This document shows positions 30,789 to 61,347 of a DNA stretch of 64,000 nt, piece by piece. Source of the DNA: Octopus vulgaris (lineage: Eukaryota); NCBI GenBank assembly GCA_951406725.2, contig OX597819.1:6696001-6760000 (forward strand), in the 5' to 3' direction. The position numbers were made by a program, and so were the translations under genes. Position 1 is the first letter of the stretch. The number at the start of each line of letters is the position of its first letter. The notes beneath the pieces are model-generated. The model saw nothing but the letters and a program-made list of their open reading frames with translations, made no database searches and had not been told where the DNA came from.

Positions 30789-30799
30789 TGGATATTTGA

Positions 30800-31012
30800 G
30801 GCGGCGAGCTGGCAGAAACGTTAGCACACCGGGCGAAATGCTTAGCGGTATTGCGTCTGTCGTTGCGTTCTGAGTTCAAATTCCGCCGAGGTCGACTTTG
30901 CCTTTCATCCTTTCGGGGTCGATAAATTAAGTACCAGATGTAATCGACTTAATCCATTTGTCTGTCCTTGTTTGTCCCCTCTGTGTTTAGCCCCTTGTGG
31001 GCAATAAGGAAA
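30800..31012 (+). mobile_element. SINE family B
   Basis: GGCGGCGAGCTGGCAGAAACGTTAG..GAGTTCAAATTCC..GCCTTTCATCCTTTCGGGGTCGATAAA. Confidence 0.85.
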
Positions 31013-31532
31013 CAGATATGGATATTTGAACATATATATACACATATACGTATGTATATGTATACATAGATATGTGTGTAGATTCACGTATATATATATG
31101 TTTGTACATGTACACAGACACTGACATGAGTGTGTGTGTGTGTGTGTGTGTGTATGTCTTCGTTCCGGTTTTGTGCGTGTATATGTTTGTTTGTATGTAC
31201 GTGCATATGTTAAAAATATGACTAAACATTTTCTGTCAGATTTTTATTAAGTTATCGATATGGATTCTTCAAATTATCAAATGTTCCAAGTAATGAGTAC
31301 TCAATACCAAGACTCGTTAGCATTGTTCTCTTTGCTTGAATGTATATGAACTATTCAGCCTTGAGTTAAAGAGGAATTTCTATATATTCCTACCAGTCAG
31401 TAAGAAATGGTGCATAATTTCCTTTATATCGCACACTACCATCTTAAATGATGAAAGATTACATTAGCTCATCAGCCTTATGCACACCTCAAAAACACTG
31501 TGTTCGCAGCTTAAATATTTTTGATCATAAGA

Positions 31533-31945
31533 AGGCGGCGAGCTGACAGAAACGTTACCATGCCGGGCGAAATGCTTAGCGGTATTTCGTCTGTCTTTAC
31601 GTTCTGAGTTCAATTTCCGCCGAGGTCAACTTTGCCTTTCATCCTTTCGGGGTCGATAAATTAAGTACCAGTTACGCACTGGAGTCGATGTAATCGACTT
31701 AATCCGTTTATCTGTCCTTGTTTTTCCCCTCTATGTTTAGCCCCTTGTGGGCAATAAAGAAATAAGAAATGTTAGGAAACCGGCCGAAATGCTTAGTGGT
31801 ATTTTGTCTGTCTTTACATTCTGAGTTCACATTCCGTCGAGGTCGACTTTGCCTTTCATCATTTCGGGGTCCATAAATTAGATACCAGTTGTGTACTGGG
31901 GTCGGTCTAATCGACTGGACCCCTCCCCCCAAAATTTCGGCCCTG
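31533..31945 (+). mobile_element. Two tandem SINE family B copies
   Basis: Family motifs at 31533-31768 and 31769-31945. Confidence 0.8.
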
Positions 31946-32259
31946 ATCATAGGTCTGCATTATTAGGGTTGACTTGGACCTACAGAACTCGTTATCATCA
32001 AGAACAACACCCAGGGCTCTTGCTTGGTGCAATAAAGAACAACTGCCAAATAAGCATCAAGAATGACGTTCAACTGAATGGTTTTAACTCTGTGAACTGT
32101 GTCTGATTTTATGGAGTATTTTACTCTTACTTTTTCTAGTAGCTTTCTATTTGTAAATCTTTTATGTATTAAATGCTTGGGACAAGTTGATGCTAACAAG
32201 ATTATGATGGTTTAGCTCCAAACTTTATCTTTAAAGTTGAAACTATTTGTTTTCGCTAT

Positions 32260-32648: not shown

Positions 32649-33357
32649 ATATATATATATATATACAGCTGATGAAGGGGATTTTTCCTTGTGTAGTTTG
32701 TCTTGTACTCTGTTTTTCTGTTGTAAAAAAATGGTTTGTTCCATGCTTGTTTTTCCGTTTTCGTTTCTCGTTGAGTTCTACGTCTATTTGTGGTGTCCTG
32801 TACTCACGTATATATATTTATACATGCATGTATGTATACTTGTAGATGTAGGTACGTACATATATGTATGTATGTATGCATATATTTTATTTATTACACT
32901 ATTGTATGACAGCACCCTCGCGTCGATTCGATTCGATTCGTTCGTTTCGTTCCGTTCTTCTTCTCCAAGTACTGTTATATATATATATATATATATATAT
33001 ACTCCGATCATACTCCCTGATATGTACAAGCAACCATTTGGATTCAAACTGGAAGTATTATATTTCTAAACTACGCTCCTATTTACTTAGTCATTAACTC
33101 ATATCAACGCGTCAGTATAGCCTACAGGATGAGACCGATTTATTTAGAAACATCGTTTCATCTCCTAAGATGAAGTTAATAGTACGAAAAGTAATTTTCA
33201 AGTATATGTTTGAAAAATATGCGTATTGTGTTCTTCCTGAAGATGCTTTGTCAGCCGCTTTGAGTCAATCATCCCAATGTGCGATGAAATCTAATACAAG
33301 AAATTATCACATGGGCAAGCACATGGAGAATTACCTCAATGGTTACTGATATCGGAG

Positions 33358-33588
33358 ACGGCGTGCTAGCAGAAGCGTTAGCAGGCCGGGCGAAATGCGT
33401 AGGCGTATTTCGTCTGCCCTTACGTTCTGAGTTCAAATTCCGCCGAGGTCGACTTTGCCTTTCATCCTTTCGGGGTCGATTAAATAAGTAACAGTTACGC
33501 ACTGGGGTCGATATAATCGACTTAATCCGGTTGTCTGTCTTTGTTTGTCCTCCCTGTGTTTAGCCCCTTGTAGGTAGTAAAGAAATAG
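33358..33588 (+). mobile_element. SINE family B
   Basis: Family motifs. Confidence 0.85.
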
Positions 33589-34161
33589 GTTGGGTAAGGA
33601 TGTTTTGTGTGTCTGTTTGACCTTTGTGTAACCAATCGATGTTGAGTGTGATTGAAGTATATGTTAAGGCGCGGGAACTGTTTTTACAGATATCAGCACC
33701 CATTTAAGACAAGAAAGACAACAGACTTGCCTCTTACTCACGTTATTATTATTATTAAACGATGATTCTTAGATTTCATTAAACTCATTAACCACAATAA
33801 ACTATTCATACATTTTAAATTTCCTATTTCATTTGCTCAAGACAACTAATCTGCCGCTAAGCATTACCAGGATGTATTATTCTCTCTAGCCATAAAGAAC
33901 AGTCGCTAGTTTCAGATATCTAAGGAGTAGCATGAAGATAGATGCACCTCACTCACTCTCTCACTTTTGAGCGCGTGGAACATCAAGGATGTAGCAACTG
34001 CGGCGAGAGAGGAGTCTACCAGAATTCAACTGGTGTTCATTTTGATTTGACTTGACTGGAACAACGCGATATGAAATTCTTTGCTCAAAAACGTATGAAG
34101 CTAACCAGGCCTTTAATTGAAACCACGACCTCATGGCCACTAGGCCATGTGTTTTCACATG

Positions 34162-34273
<112 letters not shown>

Positions 34274-34328
34274 TGTATTTATGTGTGTGAGTGTATGCAT
34301 ATGTATATATGTATATATATAATTATAT

Positions 34329-35074
34329 ATCAATCAATATAAGGGTAACAAAAAATTCAAGAAAAATTTTCTGCCACCAGCGGTCAAGTGAGAAAATAGA
34401 AATAGTCACAGACTATATGATACATTCAACAAAATATTAAGGAATGACCCTGAGAAGGTCGTTCGACTCACTTGAAAAGAGCAGCTAAAACTCAAAACCG
34501 CAAAAAATAGTAATAATTCTGAAACTGACGAGACAAGCCAAGCGTAAACGGATTTAATTTAATTTAATTAAATTTGATTGCGTGAAGATGTTGAAACCTT
34601 GCAGGGTACAAAGTTTGAAGGGGATAAATGTTTTTTATTTTCCTCTAGTTTCAGAATTATTACTATTTTTTGCGGTTTTGAGTTTTAGCTGCTCTTTTCA
34701 AGTGAGTCGAACGACCTTCTCAGGGTCATTCCTTAATATTTTGTTGAATGTATCATATAGTCTGTGACTATTTCTATTTTCTCACTTGACCGCTGGTGGC
34801 AGAAAATTTTTCTTGAATTTTTTGTTACCCTTATATTGATTGATTAATGAATTTTTGACTAATTCTGAAATTTGTATCAGCAGCTTATATTTGCTGCGGA
34901 GTAGATGGCGCGATTACGGTGAATTCGAAAATTTACGAATATAGACCCGAGGTTTAGATGGTGTAGCCTCGTGTATATATATCTGCCTCCTATTTTGGTG
35001 ACTTTGCTGACGAGACAAGCCAAGCGTAAACGGATTTAATTTAATTTAATTAAATTTGATTGCGTGAAGATGTT
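34329..35074 (+). mobile_element. Non-coding retrozyme/PLE-pLTR-like element: 198-bp inverted arm + 482-bp unit + 68-bp terminal redundancy
   Basis: 34329-34526 is the reverse complement of 34647-34844; 34525-34592 = 35007-35074; contains a hammerhead; TA-rich flanks. Confidence 0.8.
34525..34614 (+). ncRNA. Hammerhead ribozyme lacking its 5' stem I strand (that strand lies at 35001-35006)
   Basis: CTGACGA-GACA...TGTT-GAAAC-CTTGCAGG-GTA^CAAAGT. CAAAGT pairs with ACTTTG preceding the second CTGACGA at 35007; stem III ACCTTGCAGGGT is near-palindromic. Confidence 0.8.
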
Positions 35075-35189
35075 TATATAATTATATATATATGCATGTA
35101 TGTATGCATGCATGTATGTATGTATATACGTACGTATGTATGTATATACGTACGTATGTATGTATGTACATATGTTTGGCGATACCTGC

Positions 35190-35770
35190 TCGATACAATC
35201 GAGTTCTTATGCGACTGAAACCCGAGTGTCTCTTTGGTCAGCTGAAAGCAGTTTAGCACGAACTTGGCAAACACATGTCTCATACCCAAATCGTCAGTGA
35301 TAAGGGACTGAACTGAACCGTAACTGATCTTCACATCCTCTGATAACTCACGGATGGTAATTCTACAATTTCCCCTCAAAGCTGCATACACATCTGCGGT
35401 GAATTTCTCAGATCGACTGGTTGCGGGTCTTCAAGATCGTTCGTCAATATCGACATTTTTTCGGCCATCTTGGAAACGTTTGCACCATTTGAACACTTAT
35501 CTTCGGCTCATACACTTTTTGTAACTTTGCGCAAGCCTCGGAGTAGGTGTCGCTATGACAACTTTCTCTGTTATGGTCAATACGACGATCACACGCTACG
35601 CACGTTCCTCCCAAGCATTGCTGTAAACAGCGAAACTGAGCTAGAGCGTTAAAACTTAGTGCAAATGCGCAGCTGTGTTTAAGGTCAATCTTTGCCAAAC
35701 GGCTCCACTCTGGATGTTTTAGCTTCGTTATTATGGCAATAGTTCGGATACTTATTGATCAGACCACGTA
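35190..35770 (-). mobile_element. Mariner transposon 5' relic (TIR + N-terminal HTH)
   Basis: Minus strand begins TA-CGTGGTCTGATCAATAAGTATCCG; RITIRELSEDVKISYGSVQSLITDDLGMRHV.AKFV. Confidence 0.8.
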
Positions 35771-38780: not shown

Positions 38781-39475
38781 CGGCAGTAACCTGGCAGAAT
38801 CGTTGGCAGGCCGGCTAAAATGCTTCACGACATTTTCTGCGGCTTTACGTTATGGGTTCAAATCTTACCGAGGTCAGTTTTCGCCATTCATTTCTATTTT
38901 TTTTTTTTTTTTTTTCAGGTCGATAAAATATTACCAGTTGAACCCCGTGATCGATGTAATAAACTAAACTACATCCCCGAAATTGCTGGCCCTCTGCCAA
39001 ACTTTTAAACCAATATGACAAGAGGTCGTAAGGCAGCGAGCAGGTTGAATCATTAGCACACCGGGCAAAAATGCTTTGTGGTATATCTGTTTCTTTATTA
39101 CCCACAAGGGGATAAACATAGAGGGGACAAACAAGGGCAGACAAACGGATTAAGTCGATTACATCGACCCCAGTGCGTAACTGGTACTTAATTTATCGAC
39201 CCTGAAAGGATGAAAGGTAAAGTCGACCTCGGCGGAATTTGAACTCAGAACGCAACGACAGACGCAATACCGCTAAGCATTTCGCCCGGTGTGCTAACGT
39301 TTCTGCCAGCTCGCCGCCTTGTAGTATATCGTGCGTTTATACTTTCTGAGTTCAAATTCTGCCGTGATCGACTTTGTCTTTCATCATCGGCGTCGATAAA
39401 ATAGGTACCAGCTTATCACTGTGGTCAATGTAGTCGACTCACCCACTGCACTGAAATTGCTGGTTTTGTGCCAAA
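38781..39475. mobile_element. Nested SINE family B copies (a minus-strand copy at ~39090-39318 inside a plus-strand copy)
   Basis: Family motifs on both strands; GTGGTATATC/GTAGTATATC flank the inner copy. Confidence 0.7.
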
Positions 39476-41499: not shown

Positions 41500-42670
41500 A
41501 GTGAGCTAGTTAAGCGGCAGTTGACGGGGGCAATTGATATCACGTCTACTCTCTTCATTGACTACAACCTTCCCAGTTGAAAATCGTACTTCCAATTTTA
41601 AATCTTCATAGTTCTTTATTTATTCTTCTCTCACATTGACCCTGTTGTCACCGGGGCATGTTATGTCGATTATCATGGATGTTCTTTCTTTTTTATTCAC
41701 CTCAACAATGTCCGGTTTCCGATGTCTAGCCAGGTGATCGCACTGGGCCATTGCATCCCACAGGATTTTGCAATTCTCATTCTCAGTGATTCCTTCCGGG
41801 TCTTCTCATACCACGTATTTGCTCTATGTAAGCCTTGATTGCCACAGAGCTTCCAAGGGATCATTCTTGCCATATTGTCATGGCGTACTTTATTGTCGCT
41901 TTCTGCCAATTTCGAGCATTCGCTGACGATGTGCCATAATGTTTCACTCCTCTTACTACATATTCTGCATTTGTAGCTGTCGGTAGTGTTGTATATTCTG
42001 CACTTCACATAGTTGGTCCTTAACGCTTGATTTTGAGCTGCGCATATGAGTGCTTCTGTCTCGATCTTCAGGTTACTCCTCCTCACCCATAGCCGCCGGT
42101 CCTCTGTATCTGTCTTGGCGGTCACATCTCTTGCACACTGACCATTCATTTCTCTTTCCTTCCATGTATTGTTTTCTTTTTTGTGTTCATTTTTTGTTTA
42201 AATTTTTCTTTCATTGCACAATTTTCAGTTTTGATGACGCCGGCCTTTTTTGTACGTTTCAACAATAGCGTCACGGCATTTTTTATATTCTCCCCTAAGC
42301 TGTTTTCCTCTGCTTCAATACAGTCCTGGCAACTGCTCAAACCTCTCCCACCCTTTCTTCTGGACAAGTACAGCCTATCGGTGTCACTCTCAGGGTGGAA
42401 GGCCCCATGAACTGTTATCATTCTTCTGGTCTTGGTATTCCTTTTCATCACTTCCCTCTTTTGTCATTTTATAATTCCCGCTCCATACCGATTAAATACG
42501 TATTAAATGCTTAGATTTTATTCCATCCAGTCAATTTTGAGCGCAACACTAACCTTAGTCTTCGGAAATATTCTATCCTCAGTTGCTTTCTGATTTCCCT
42601 CTCCATTATCTCGTTTAACTCTAGTACACTAAGGTATTTGTAGCCTTCCATTTCAACTTGTTTAACCAAG
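41500..42670 (-). pseudogene. RLE-LINE fragment
   Basis: YKYLSVLE, HPESDTDRLYLSRRKGGRGL, ETEALICAAQNQAL, CRIC..ETLWHIVSEC, RHDN. Confidence 0.85.
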
Positions 42671-44959: not shown

Positions 44960-47390
44960 GTGAAAAGATTAGAAAACGACAACATTCCCACAAAAAGCCT
45001 ACTTGGCAAGAGCGTATTCAACACCAAATTCAGTTACTTAGGTCTGACAGAATGTTTAAAAAACCCTAAGTTTGACAAGACTATCAAACCAACAAAAACC
45101 CGAAAATTAAAGAAAAAAGTGGAATAGGAAACCATATTTGACGTCGATACCACCATAGAAACTTTCAAGCAAAAAGTATGTGATAAAGTTGCCCGCATAG
45201 CAAGGTATGAAAAGCGTATTGGATTCTTCAAGGTCAACAACATGTTCAAACATAACACAAAATATTTTTACAAGAAGATAGGAGAAATGCCAGTTACACT
45301 AAAGTCTGTCCTATCAAAAGAAGAAGTGCAGGAATTTTAGAATAAAATTTGGGCAGAAGAAAAAACACACAATGAAAAGGCCCCTTGGATTGATAGAATA
45401 TCTATAGACTTAGACTCCTTATAAGAGCAAAAGTTGGAGGGTATCTAGGTAGAGGATGCAAGGTCTGTTCTCAGGAGCTCAAGCAAATGGAAGTCTCCAG
45501 GAAAGAATAAAATTCCTAACTTCTGGTTGAATGCCTTCCCAGAGAGCCATGAACTGCTACCAAAACTTTACAACAATGTTTTGCAACAACCTGGTTAGTT
45601 AATGGTGTAACATTCCTACATCCAAAAAATGAAGAAACAAATGAACCAAAAAATTATAGACTCATAACTTGCTTAACAACAGTGTATAAAATCCGAACAT
45701 CTGTCTTGACTGAATATACCTATAGTTTTTTAATAGAAAGTTGCATATTCCCAAATGCGTCAAAAGGAAGTAAACGTGGATCTTATGGTTGTAAATATCA
45801 GCTTCTCATCAATAAGATGATCTTAAAAGATTGTCACGAACGACACAAAAACTTGACGATAACCTGGATAGATTATAAAAAGGCTTTTGTTAGTCTACCA
45901 CATAGCTGGATGAAGAAATGTCTGGAAATGTATAAAACAGTATCTACTCTGCAAAACTTTTTGTCTGTAAGTATGAAATCATGGAGAACCACACTCACTT
46001 TGAACAGTGACAAGGAATCTCTTAATGCTGGAGATGTAAAAATTTCATGTGGCTTTTTCCAGGGTAACTCTCTATCACCACTTCTCAATGATGTACAATG
46101 CGATTATAAAATGTTTGATAAAAATATAAATCATCTCATTTACACGGATGATTTAAAGCTCTTTGCAAAAAATAACCAACAACTACAGGGCTTACTACCG
46201 ATTGTTCAGTGATGACAATTCAGTGATAACATCAGGATGCAATTTGGCCTCGAAAAATGTGCAAAGGCTACTTTTATGAAAAGAAAAATGACAGAAACAT
46301 CTAACGTTAATCTTGACCAGCAGAACGTCATAAAGGAATTAGAACCAGCGGAGAGCTTCAAATACTTAGGGGTGTTTCAAGGGGACGGAATCAAAATTCA
46401 GTGATGAGGGAAAAAATCAGAAGAGAATGTTATCGCAGGGTAAGGGCAATAATCAAGACAGAGCAGAATGCAAGAAACAAGATCGACGTAATCAATACTT
46501 TAGCCATACCAGTCGTGACTTACAGTTTCAATATCATTAACAGTCAATTACTGAAATATATAATCTTGACAGAAAAATACGAAAACTGTTGACAATGCAT
46601 AGAATGCACCACCCTACGGCAGATATAGAACGACATTATCTGCCAAGAGAAGAGGGAGGCCGTGGACTTTTACAACTTGAATTAACAATGAAGATTGCCA
46701 CAATCGGCCTAGACACCTACCAGAAAAACTTTGATGCCTGTATGTTAAAACTTGTCTCAAAGTATGAAAACAAAAAAGCATCATACTCAGTAACAAAAGA
46801 GGCAAAGGAATATTTAAGTGAATTCCAAATACAACAAATTCCAGAATTAGACGTACTAGAAACAAGCACAGGAAAAGCTAAGCGTATGAAAACCTGGGCT
46901 AAAATTACTGCCTTAAATATTTTAAATAATAAATGGCAAGAAAAAGGTCTCAATGGCAAATACCCAAAGAGAGCTAATAGTGCTGGTGTTGACAAAGCCT
47001 TAACCCATCAATGGTTAGTGGCTTCTGGCTTAAAATCAGAAATAGAAGTGTTTATCATAGCAGCCTATGATCAATGCCTACCTACAAGGTTGTCTCCACG
47101 TGAAGTCTTTTTGTGCCTACAGAGTATATCAACAGGCATGAGAGCAACATAATATATTCAATATATAATTGGCACGCTTAGAAGTATCAGCACTCAACTA
47201 CCAACATGGCTCAAAAATATTTGCATAAATGCAAAGATAGAACGCCTACAAAAATCGTCATTACTTGAAACTGCAAGAGTTCTCCGCAGGGTTCTTGAAG
47301 CATAAGTAAACAAGTGTCACCTTAGTCTACTGGCTGTGAACAGATGACGCTTTCCATCATACAGAGCAAAATAAGCCGAGAGTCTTAATC
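44960..47390 (+). pseudogene. Longest R4/Dong-type LINE relic (RT domain) plus a separate 3' end, terminating at (AAT)n
   Basis: WKSPG..IPNFW, WIDYKKAF.SLPHSW, GFFQGNSLSPL, INHLIYTDDLKLF, FGLEKC, EEGGRGL, GLKSE.E.FIIAA.DQ. Confidence 0.9.
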
Positions 47391-59965: not shown

Positions 59966-60979
59966 ATGCGTGCAAAAAACATATGCAATAGGTGTACGTA
60001 CATACATGTGTGTATGTGTGTTACCTATATATATTTATATTATATTATATTATATTATATTATATATAATAGGAAGCCCAATGATAGACTAAGTTATATT
60101 AATGTAGGTTCATGCCATCCCCCTATAGTATTCAAAAATTTAGTTAAAAATATTAGTAAGAGGATTTCCAGCCTCTCATCTGATGAGGACATCTTCAATA
60201 GCGTTGCCCCAGTTTATAATAAGGCTTTAAAAGATAGTGGTTTTAGCGATAAAATAAAATATACACCTATCACTAGCCCAACAGTAAAGAAAAGGAATAA
60301 TAGAAATAGGAAGGTCATCTGGTTTACGCCCCCTTACTCACCCGAGGTGGCCTTCAATATAGGTAAATATTTCCTAGCACTGATAGATAGACATTTTCCA
60401 GTTAACCATACTTATAGGAAACTCTTCAATAGACACAATTTAAAAATTAGTTTTAGTTCAACTACCAATTTTAAAAACATAATCAAACATAACATACAAA
60501 AAACACAAGAAGAAAACAGCTGTTCATGCAGGAATAAAGAATTGTGCCCGCTAAATGGAGCTTGCATGTCCAAGACCATCATATATGAAGCTACCGTAAA
60601 CTCTATAACCACTAAAGACACCGTTTCGACGAAGAAATACGTGGGCCTTACAGAGGGTAATTTCAAGGCCAGGTTCAATAACCACACTTTGAGCTTTAGG
60701 CACTGGAACAAAAGAAAAGCGACACAATTGTCTAATCATATTTGGTCTTTAAGAGATAAAGGTGTCGATTATAACATACAATGGAAGATTTTGGCCAGAT
60801 GTAAGCCCTATACTAACGGCAGCGGAAGGTGCGGTCTATGCGACATGGAGAGATGGCTTATCTGGAAAAGCAGCTTAGACCCTACTACATGTCTAAATAC
60901 AAGGACAGAGCTTTTCGGATCATGCCCACATGTGACTAAGTTTCTGTTACGTTTTTGGTCCCCTAAAGAAAACAGATAG
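59966..60979 (+). CDS. Penelope-like retroelement ORF, 5'-truncated: RT thumb, Cys-rich linker and C-terminal GIY-YIG endonuclease (real homology begins ~60065; upstream codons are flank/microsatellite)
   Basis: YNRKPND..YINVGSCHPP...ISKRISSLSS (PLE RT thumb); IWFTPPYS; CSCRNKELCPLNGAC; IIYEATV..KKYVGLTEGNFKARFNNH (GIY-YIG); CGLCDMER..LNTRTELFGSCPH. The frame is open to TAG at 60977-60979. The motif layout resembles Naiad-type PLEs (inference). Confidence 0.9.
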   Translation: MRAKNICNRCTYIHVCMCVTYIYLYYIILYYIIYNRKPNDRLSYINVGSCHPPIVFKNLVKNISKRISSLSSDEDIFNSVAPVYNKALKDSGFSDKIKYTPITSPTVKKRNNRNRKVIWFTPPYSPEVAFNIGKYFLALIDRHFPVNHTYRKLFNRHNLKISFSSTTNFKNIIKHNIQKTQEENSCSCRNKELCPLNGACMSKTIIYEATVNSITTKDTVSTKKYVGLTEGNFKARFNNHTLSFRHWNKRKATQLSNHIWSLRDKGVDYNIQWKILARCKPYTNGSGRCGLCDMERWLIWKSSLDPTTCLNTRTELFGSCPHVTKFLLRFWSPKENR

Positions 60980-61347
60980 AACATGCTTTCTATGTTATGT
61001 CCCAAGAAGAATTTATATATTTTTATATATTTTTTATATATTTTTTTATGTATTTTTTATGTATTTTTATATAATTTTTATGACGAAAAATGCGAGCGAT
61101 GTATAAGTACGCAGGCAAGCAGAGTTATAACAGAGTAATTTCCCTTTATTTAACGGTATTTTTTCATAACGTTTTCAAATAGCCAGATAACCGAAGAGAT
61201 GGTGTTGTGGATTTCCACTTCGGCATCTGAAACTCAGAGTTTTATCTTGGCTACCGAGTAATGTAACATATTGTATAGATAAATTTCCCCTATTTACATA
61301 ATATTGAGGTCTCTTTCTTTCTTTTGTTATCTTACCGTTTTATCAAT
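60065..61347 (+). mobile_element. Penelope-like element (truncated ORF + 3' pLTR region with hammerhead) bounded by TA-rich tracts
   Basis: GIY-YIG ORF, then ~370 bp of non-coding sequence containing a hammerhead motif; both ends abut (TA)n/(TATTA)n. Confidence 0.85.
61180..61253 (+). ncRNA. Hammerhead ribozyme (type I, palindromic stem III) in the PLE 3' region
   Basis: TAGCCAGATAA-CCGAAGA-GATG..CATC-T-GAAAC-TCAGA-GTT^TTATCTTGGCTA. Stem I 11 bp with one bulge; stem III ACTC(A)GAGT; core has U4->C and one extra U before GAAA. Confidence 0.75.

Follow-up and report, generated by a model that had tools for sequence, protein, structure and literature searches.

A young retrozyme insertion in the octopus genome, the two-site end rule of its family and a likely Penelope-like mobiliser

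Hammerhead repeats closest to the octopus element

The non-LTR retrozymes of Metazoa, as described for Acropora, Mytilus and the axolotl (Cervera and de la Pena 2020, PMC7229834), are non-coding tandem units of a few hundred bases that carry one type I hammerhead per unit, have a G+C content below 50%, generate target duplications of more than 4 nt and co-occur with Penelope-like elements (PLEs), all traits shared by the Octopus vulgaris element described here. The account in PMC7229834 includes circular RNAs, ligation by RtcB and PLEs as candidate mobilisers. Relative to the retrozymes covered there, the octopus unit is longer (482 nt, above the 150-450 nt range given), its stem II has a long hairpin extension, its stem III is 4 bp with a palindromic loop, and, in place of long arrays, its copies form short, scattered inserts of at most 4.5 units. 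Circular RNA has been demonstrated for the retrozymes of PMC7229834; for the 482-nt family a circle is proposed. Vertebrate non-LTR retrozymes (Li, Clavereau and Pollet 2026, 10.64898/2026.07.22.740005) belong to the same class, with families of 51-972 bp, most having no more than 7 units, and are also proposed to use PLE enzymes; as presented there, the PLE link comes from co-occurrence and pLTR similarity, whereas here it comes from a pattern of ends common to retrozyme and PLEs and from an insertion in which the two are fused. A circle model with mobilisation by PLEs has already been proposed in the texts of PMC7229834, PMC4209133 and 10.64898/2026.07.22.740005.

The EN+ PLEs of the Neptune and Hydra groups (Craig et al. 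2021, PMC8557442; Cervera and de la Pena 2014, PMC4209133) are described as forming partial tandems with an inverted, 5′-truncated arm at (TA)n targets, with a hammerhead upstream of the 3′ end and an extension at one end only, and the octopus element has the same layout. It has, however, no reverse transcriptase (RT) or GIY-YIG ORF, its unit is 482 nt as opposed to 4271 nt in the Neptune family documented below, and its two ends are about 95 nt apart as against the 30-40 nt given for PLEs in PMC8557442. Newt satellite 2, according to PMC7229834, likewise has a hammerhead of type I whose palindromic helix III allows it to act as a dimer. Plant LTR retrozymes have type III hammerheads located in LTRs, a primer-binding site and a 4-nt target duplication, and differ from the octopus element with its type I topology, 14-nt duplication and tandem units. 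The SM-alpha repeat of Schistosoma is a dimer-type hammerhead repeat, type I, with a palindromic helix III. As newt satellite 2 and SM-alpha have been described, the octopus element is set apart from both by a longer unit and a longer helix III. The octopus element has the features of a non-LTR retrozyme that were tested, namely one hammerhead per unit, tandem repeats, no ORF, the low G+C content, a target duplication and resident PLEs in the genome. It is not an autonomous EN+ PLE, given the missing ORF, though it shares their tandem and inverted layout with one-ended extension.

Structure of the insertion and its hammerhead

The window is the whole 64,000-nt stretch of DNA that was analysed. 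In it, a retrozyme insertion occupies 34329-35074 within a (TA)n microsatellite and is bounded by a 14-nt target duplication. Positions in the 482-nt unit are given as u, the window position minus 34524, and S1 and S2 are the two regions in which 3′ ends of the family are concentrated.

34316..34329, no strand assigned: left target-site duplication, TATATAATTATATA, closing the (TA)n/(TATG)n tract at 34164-34330
34329..34526, minus strand: inverted arm, u123-320, 198 nt, 100% identical to 34647-34844 inverted
34525..34526, no strand assigned: arm junction with a 2-nt microhomology (CT)
34525..35006, plus strand: one complete 482-nt unit, non-coding, 34.6% G+C
34724..34765, plus strand: proximal 3′-end window S1 of the family, u200-241, unused by the window copy
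34815..34859, plus strand: distal 3′-end window S2 of the family, u291-335, with its mode at u320 (34844)
35007..35074, plus strand: start of the following unit, u1-68, with an atypical end just 5′ of GAAA
35075..35088, no strand assigned: right target-site duplication, TATATAATTATATA, matching 34316-34329

A repeat search of the window confirmed that 34525-34592 and 35007-35074 are identical over 68 nt at a spacing of 482, as stated in the preliminary description, which also correctly identified a retrozyme-type unit and read the plus arm as a reverse transcript 1.14 units long; this arm runs for 550 nt, from u1 to u68 of the next unit. That description recorded the direct repeat and missed the perfect 198-nt inverted arm of the same insertion, which stops at u320, the commonest distal 3′ site of the family (S2). 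The absence of a coding ORF also stands, the longest stop-free runs in the unit tandem being 69 aa on the plus strand and 52 aa on the minus strand. There are no differences over the 218 duplicated positions that could be compared, and the window copy is a young insertion, as had been proposed. When folded as a circle, the unit is more stable than shuffled sequences (z -4.4).

Rechecking of coordinates in the window placed the elements of the hammerhead where they had originally been assigned:

34525..34614, plus strand: type I hammerhead without the 5′ strand of stem I, comprising core, stem II, GAAA, stem III and the 3′ strand of stem I
34525-34531 and 35007-35013, plus strand: core CTGACGA
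34532-34535 and 34589-34592, plus strand: stem II, GACA and TGTT, with a long hairpin extension
34593-34596, plus strand: GAAA
34596-34607, plus strand: palindromic stem III, ACCTTGCAGGGT
34608, plus strand: N17, A34608 (u84), after which cleavage is predicted
34609-34614, plus strand: 3′ strand of stem I, CAAAGT
35001..35006, plus strand: 5′ strand of stem I, ACTTTG, complementary to CAAAGT at 34609-34614

In the window copy, the motif is split because its plus arm begins at u1 and runs only to u68 of the following unit. A hammerhead complete only across a tandem or circular junction had been suggested; the split is real at this locus but is an accident of its breakpoints, peculiar to the window copy, as the 126 retrozyme loci mapped in the genome contain 106 contiguous motifs, with one type I motif per unit. 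In 140 motifs, the core conforms to CTGAnGA...GAAA with GTA or GTC at the predicted cleavage site, and in 139 of them stem III, of which there are six sequence types, is wholly self-complementary as a dimer; the filter used for this count demanded TGC or GCA in the loop, and the invariance of the loop is therefore not independent evidence. For one stem III variant the hairpin of the monomer is unfavourable (+0.7 kcal/mol) and the dimer stable (-15.3), and the stem III pattern fits the dimer-type hammerhead as described in PMC4209133. In a sister family with about 70% identity, both remaining stems are changed on both sides, ACTTTG/CAAAGT being replaced by CCTA/TAGG in stem I and GACA/TGTT by GCAG/CTGC in stem II. 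Judged by this sequence variation, the hammerhead is a motif under selection, its predicted fold being kept across three subfamilies. No hammerhead was matched in Rfam, either in the window at the gathering threshold or in an intact tandem copy at E values up to 10, and the assignment rests on the core nucleotides and the covariation.

The window copy has a single predicted cleavage site and on its own would therefore yield no monomer; 16 of the 126 loci have two such sites in tandem. At least two consecutive complete hammerheads, by which Li et al. define an 'active' retrozyme in 10.64898/2026.07.22.740005, are present at 10 of the 126 loci and absent from the window copy. According to the same text, only one of nine predicted Xenopus retrozyme dimers was cleaved in vitro, which, like the energy of the predicted fold and the lack of an Rfam match, counts against activity of the motif.

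Several other repeats are present in the window. Broken transposase-like frames adjoin the insertion on the minus strand (35170-35760; HTH_24 match, E 1e-4), which we take to resemble mariner. A 245-nt SINE-like repeat, presumably akin to octopus SINEs, occurs in both orientations (30799-31043, 31533-31777, 31750-31994, 33356-33600 and 39083-39320), and there are frame fragments of a LINE-like reverse transcriptase at 45553-47152 (plus strand) and 41697-42197 (minus strand), with an RVT_1 match at E 7e-15 and a weak zf-RVT match.

The genomic family, its two end sites and resident Penelope-like elements

Searches of the 2.8 Gb genome with exact patterns gave 116 matches to the 3′ half of the hammerhead, 119 to the stretch that follows it and 52 to the 5′ half of the hammerhead in the youngest subfamily, with no matches in the same genome to any of the three reversed control patterns; in a DNA search, 40 of 1850 first-look candidates were scored. 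The 126 loci mapped against the unit are drawn from the matches listed, with 16 of the 116, 19 of the 119 and some weaker DNA-search matches lying outside them. The family is dispersed across many contigs and consists of a young subfamily, with about 98% identity to the window copy, and older ones at about 85%. The sister family has the same stem III, is about 70% identical around the unit and gave 94 exact motif matches, of which 30 loci were read (L181-L210, with a further locus at L125:1000-1625); an additional diverged relative was located at L257:516-705. The family includes tandem copies to which no PLE ORF is attached, in agreement with the genome check that the preliminary description had called for. 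We conclude that this is a family of non-LTR retrozymes, a known class, and that the family itself is apparently new. A literature search, made outside subscription journals, Repbase entries and supplements, returned no account of a 482-nt family, of a cephalopod retrozyme or of a two-site end rule; the supplements of PMC7229834 and PMC8557442 list further elements that might include this family.

The 3′ ends are not evenly distributed. In 171 of 187 segments, the 3′ end is located in one of two windows that together span 85 of the 482 positions, 89 at S1 and 82 at S2, sites about 95 nt apart, with most joins to (TA)n at S1 falling at about u214-229 when read by eye. For 164 of these 171 ends there is a (TA)3 within 40 nt, whereas the 5′ ends of the 187 segments are spread around the unit. 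The prediction of freely permuted copies is, therefore, not borne out: only the 5′ ends vary. Both orientations are present at 55 of the 126 loci, and at 53 a colinear stretch exceeds 482 nt, reaching 2156 nt in the longest case. Two-armed insertions number 60; in 49 of them both outer ends fall at S1 or S2, and 46 of these 49 have one end of each kind (P 3.5e-11 against free choice). The window copy, with 3′ ends at S2 (minus arm) and at the atypical u68 (plus arm), is one of the 11 with an end elsewhere. Target duplications of 14-15 nt with non-TA interruptions are recognizable at the window locus and at L007; flanks at most other loci are pure TA and so uninformative on this point. Clustering at the cleavage site cannot be claimed for the 5′ ends, as only 3 of 110 are at u84-86.

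Spread of satellite-like or duplicated DNA without an RNA stage, with a hammerhead-like motif present by chance, is in our judgement very improbable. Local tandem duplication does occur in the family (L079 and L019, see below) and Rfam gave no match, but the fixed 3′ and scattered 5′ ends, target duplications, dispersal, covarying stems and a copy rich in A>G changes argue instead for retrotransposition.

At least three PLE families are resident in the octopus genome, their RT plus GIY-YIG ORFs being 781, 775 and 717 aa long and each family being present in many near-identical copies; 150 of 6136 GIY-YIG candidates were scored. The 781-aa and 775-aa families have a CxxxxCxxC linker, as in the Neptune type, and the 717-aa family has RWK, DKT and CxCX5C motifs, which are Hydra motifs in the description of PMC8557442. 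The 775-aa Neptune family has a 4271-bp tandem unit and two end sites in (TA)n, separated by about 31 nt, with one end of each kind in all four complete inverted pairs (a fifth pair was unscorable). For the Hydra family, the two end sites are about 70 nt apart and, as scored by eye, one of each is used in 6 of 6 pairs. The two-site rule of these PLEs is the one-ended tail described in PMC8557442, and the retrozyme obeys the same rule. At L271 (G000:C1:38875800-38885700), a Neptune PLE with 4271-bp tandems carries a hammerhead-like motif, its core being CCGAAGA, and, 5′ of its RT-GIY-YIG ORF, a second open frame of 454 aa. The window itself contains, on the plus strand at 60060-61347, a 5′-truncated copy of an active Hydra-type PLE with its 3′ end in (TA)n; full copies have the 717-aa ORF, and there are 131 scored matches at 98-100%. 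A hammerhead-like motif, again with a CCGAAGA core, lies within this copy at about 61188-61245.

At one locus, a retrozyme and a PLE are fused. The insertion at L138:2893-5390, also L172 (G000:C13 near 22938700), consists of an inverted retrozyme arm that stops at S1 and a 5′-truncated Neptune PLE arm that stops at the distal site of its family, with a 3-nt microhomology at the fusion and both outer ends in (TA)n. The PLE arm is 98.6% identical over 1881 nt to L071, a member of the 775-aa family. When 75 free 5′ junctions were compared with 17 PLE loci, no other retrozyme-PLE chimera came to light. A second candidate, at L087 and L171:5607-6358, where a fragment of another Neptune-like RT ORF accompanies a rearranged, three-segment retrozyme copy, was not counted, as the PLE fragment is joined head to head and there is no clear target duplication; a retrozyme-like piece near the Neptune copy L257 was also rejected, as TA tracts and unique DNA lie between them. 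Based on blastn, the unit has no similarity to the Neptune and Hydra families that were fetched, and when the unit and its end sites were compared with PLE ends against shuffles, the best of eight tests (p 0.02) was rejected. In view of this lack of detectable DNA similarity to the PLEs tested, the partnership with a PLE rests on the shared layout and on one chimera in 126 loci, from which a PLE is likely to be the mobiliser of the retrozyme.

The layout is also that expected if the unit were no more than the pLTR, or terminal repeat, of an autonomous PLE, the loci then being truncated PLE ends. A type I hammerhead, TA targets and a tandem plus inverted layout are PLE traits in the description of PMC8557442, nearly all of the 24 of 57 Xenopus retrozyme families that matched known elements matched PLE ends as reported in 10.64898/2026.07.22.740005, and the octopus PLEs are sampled in part, as given above. 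Nevertheless, 5′ of the hammerhead every long copy runs into the previous 482-nt unit and never into an ORF, the PLE ORF matches near the 126 loci belong to separate neighbours or to the chimera with none leading into the unit, and none of the 30 sister-family loci matches the two Neptune proteins tested. For the present copies, we regard the terminal-repeat reading as largely refuted and its probability as low.

Template and assembly of the insertions

The nature of the RNA template was initially read from the 68-nt direct repeat. That repeat cannot separate a circle from a tandem transcript. Joins of 35006 to 34525, which had been offered as a sign of a circle, are present in contigs of three of the four presumed-RNA runs holding the unit, but are no evidence for one because the same junction exists in genomic tandems and the contigs reveal neither ends nor strand. 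Of the 110 segments that hold u91-111, 106 extend beyond the cleavage site, a read-through that fits a circular template, and the two priming sites lie inside the monomer expected from cleavage.

Mobilisation of the same element by a PLE from a mostly uncut linear tandem transcript, or from monomers joined by template jumps, with no circle, is possible but rather unlikely. The 16 loci with two tandem cleavage sites could supply multimers, the predicted active fold is not the one of lowest energy (at the window hammerhead it lies 3.0 kcal/mol above an inactive alternative), and PLE-type hammerheads are described as poor cleavers in vitro in PMC4209133. The L170 insertion has unlike haplotypes in two passes at five sites in u429-459, which one circle cannot yield. 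The longest array, L079 (4.5 units; G000:C29:17363975-17366247), was considered as proof of rolling-circle copying and rejected, as its three inner units share two variants that are missing from the outer passes. L019 has the same pattern, which points to growth of both arrays by local duplication after insertion; if so, the original inserts reach only about 2.5 units, a length that uncut multimers could also account for. An uncut template is, however, harder to reconcile with a hammerhead fold that is kept in three subfamilies while 106 of 110 cDNAs pass the cleavage site. Divergence between passes is lower within insertions than between them, at 1.0% versus 2.0% in the young subfamily and 1.9% versus 5.7% in the older ones, and in the young subfamily ten variants private to one insertion occur in all of its passes, a result most simply obtained if one unit is read repeatedly. 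No young-subfamily array of more than four hammerheads is present in the assembly. Taken as sequence evidence, these observations lean towards a circle over uncut multimers.

In one copy, L166 (G000:C2:137911400-137911760), six of the eight substitutions on the hammerhead strand are A>G, and the cleavage site and a core base are among the positions affected (binomial P 1e-5; 0.0013 when all 126 loci are considered), which suggests that it was copied from an A-to-I edited RNA template of that strand. There is no family-wide A>G bias (15 A>G versus 20 T>C; 12 versus 18). The A>G changes in a contig from run X6 were rejected as transcript editing, since the genomic copy L166 has identical changes.

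The explanation that we consider probable is that the window copy is a young two-armed retrozyme insertion in a TA microsatellite, and that the RT and GIY-YIG nuclease of a PLE likely produced it from an RNA monomer that was probably circular. Source loci with two cleavage sites would be transcribed on the hammerhead strand, paired hammerheads would cut after u84, and a host ligase would close the 482-nt monomer. As judged from the junctions, the PLE enzyme would nick both strands of the (TA)n target with a stagger of about 14 nt. The observed pattern of ends suggests that one target strand then primes at S1 and the other at S2, priming being internal to the unit via short AT/TA microhomology. 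As their DNA copies indicate, the cDNAs would pass the cleavage site, often continue past a full unit, come to an end at various points and then be joined back to back. In the window copy, one arm of 198 nt would have originated from S2 and the other, of 550 nt, from the atypical u68. More tentatively, PLE integration in general may be an asymmetric double priming on circular RNAs, in which each cut TA strand has a dedicated internal RNA priming site and different RNAs can serve the two strands, as comparison with the retrozyme-Neptune chimera suggests.

In the texts of PMC7229834, PMC8557442 and 10.64898/2026.07.22.740005, both the enzyme that moves animal retrozymes and the assembly by PLEs of tandem and inverted insertions with a one-ended tail are presented as hypotheses. 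The octopus family offers countable genomic evidence on both, in an end rule that it has in common with two PLE clades and in a single insertion composed of a retrozyme arm and a PLE arm, and it is this rule and the chimera, not the split hammerhead, that give the locus its significance. With a candidate enzyme (the Neptune family of L071 and L271), two RNA sites and a small substrate named, the mechanism becomes testable. If double priming is true, it would account for both the inverted arms and the one-ended PLE 'tail', and the reaction might be reconstituted with the 482-nt retrozyme as its minimal substrate.
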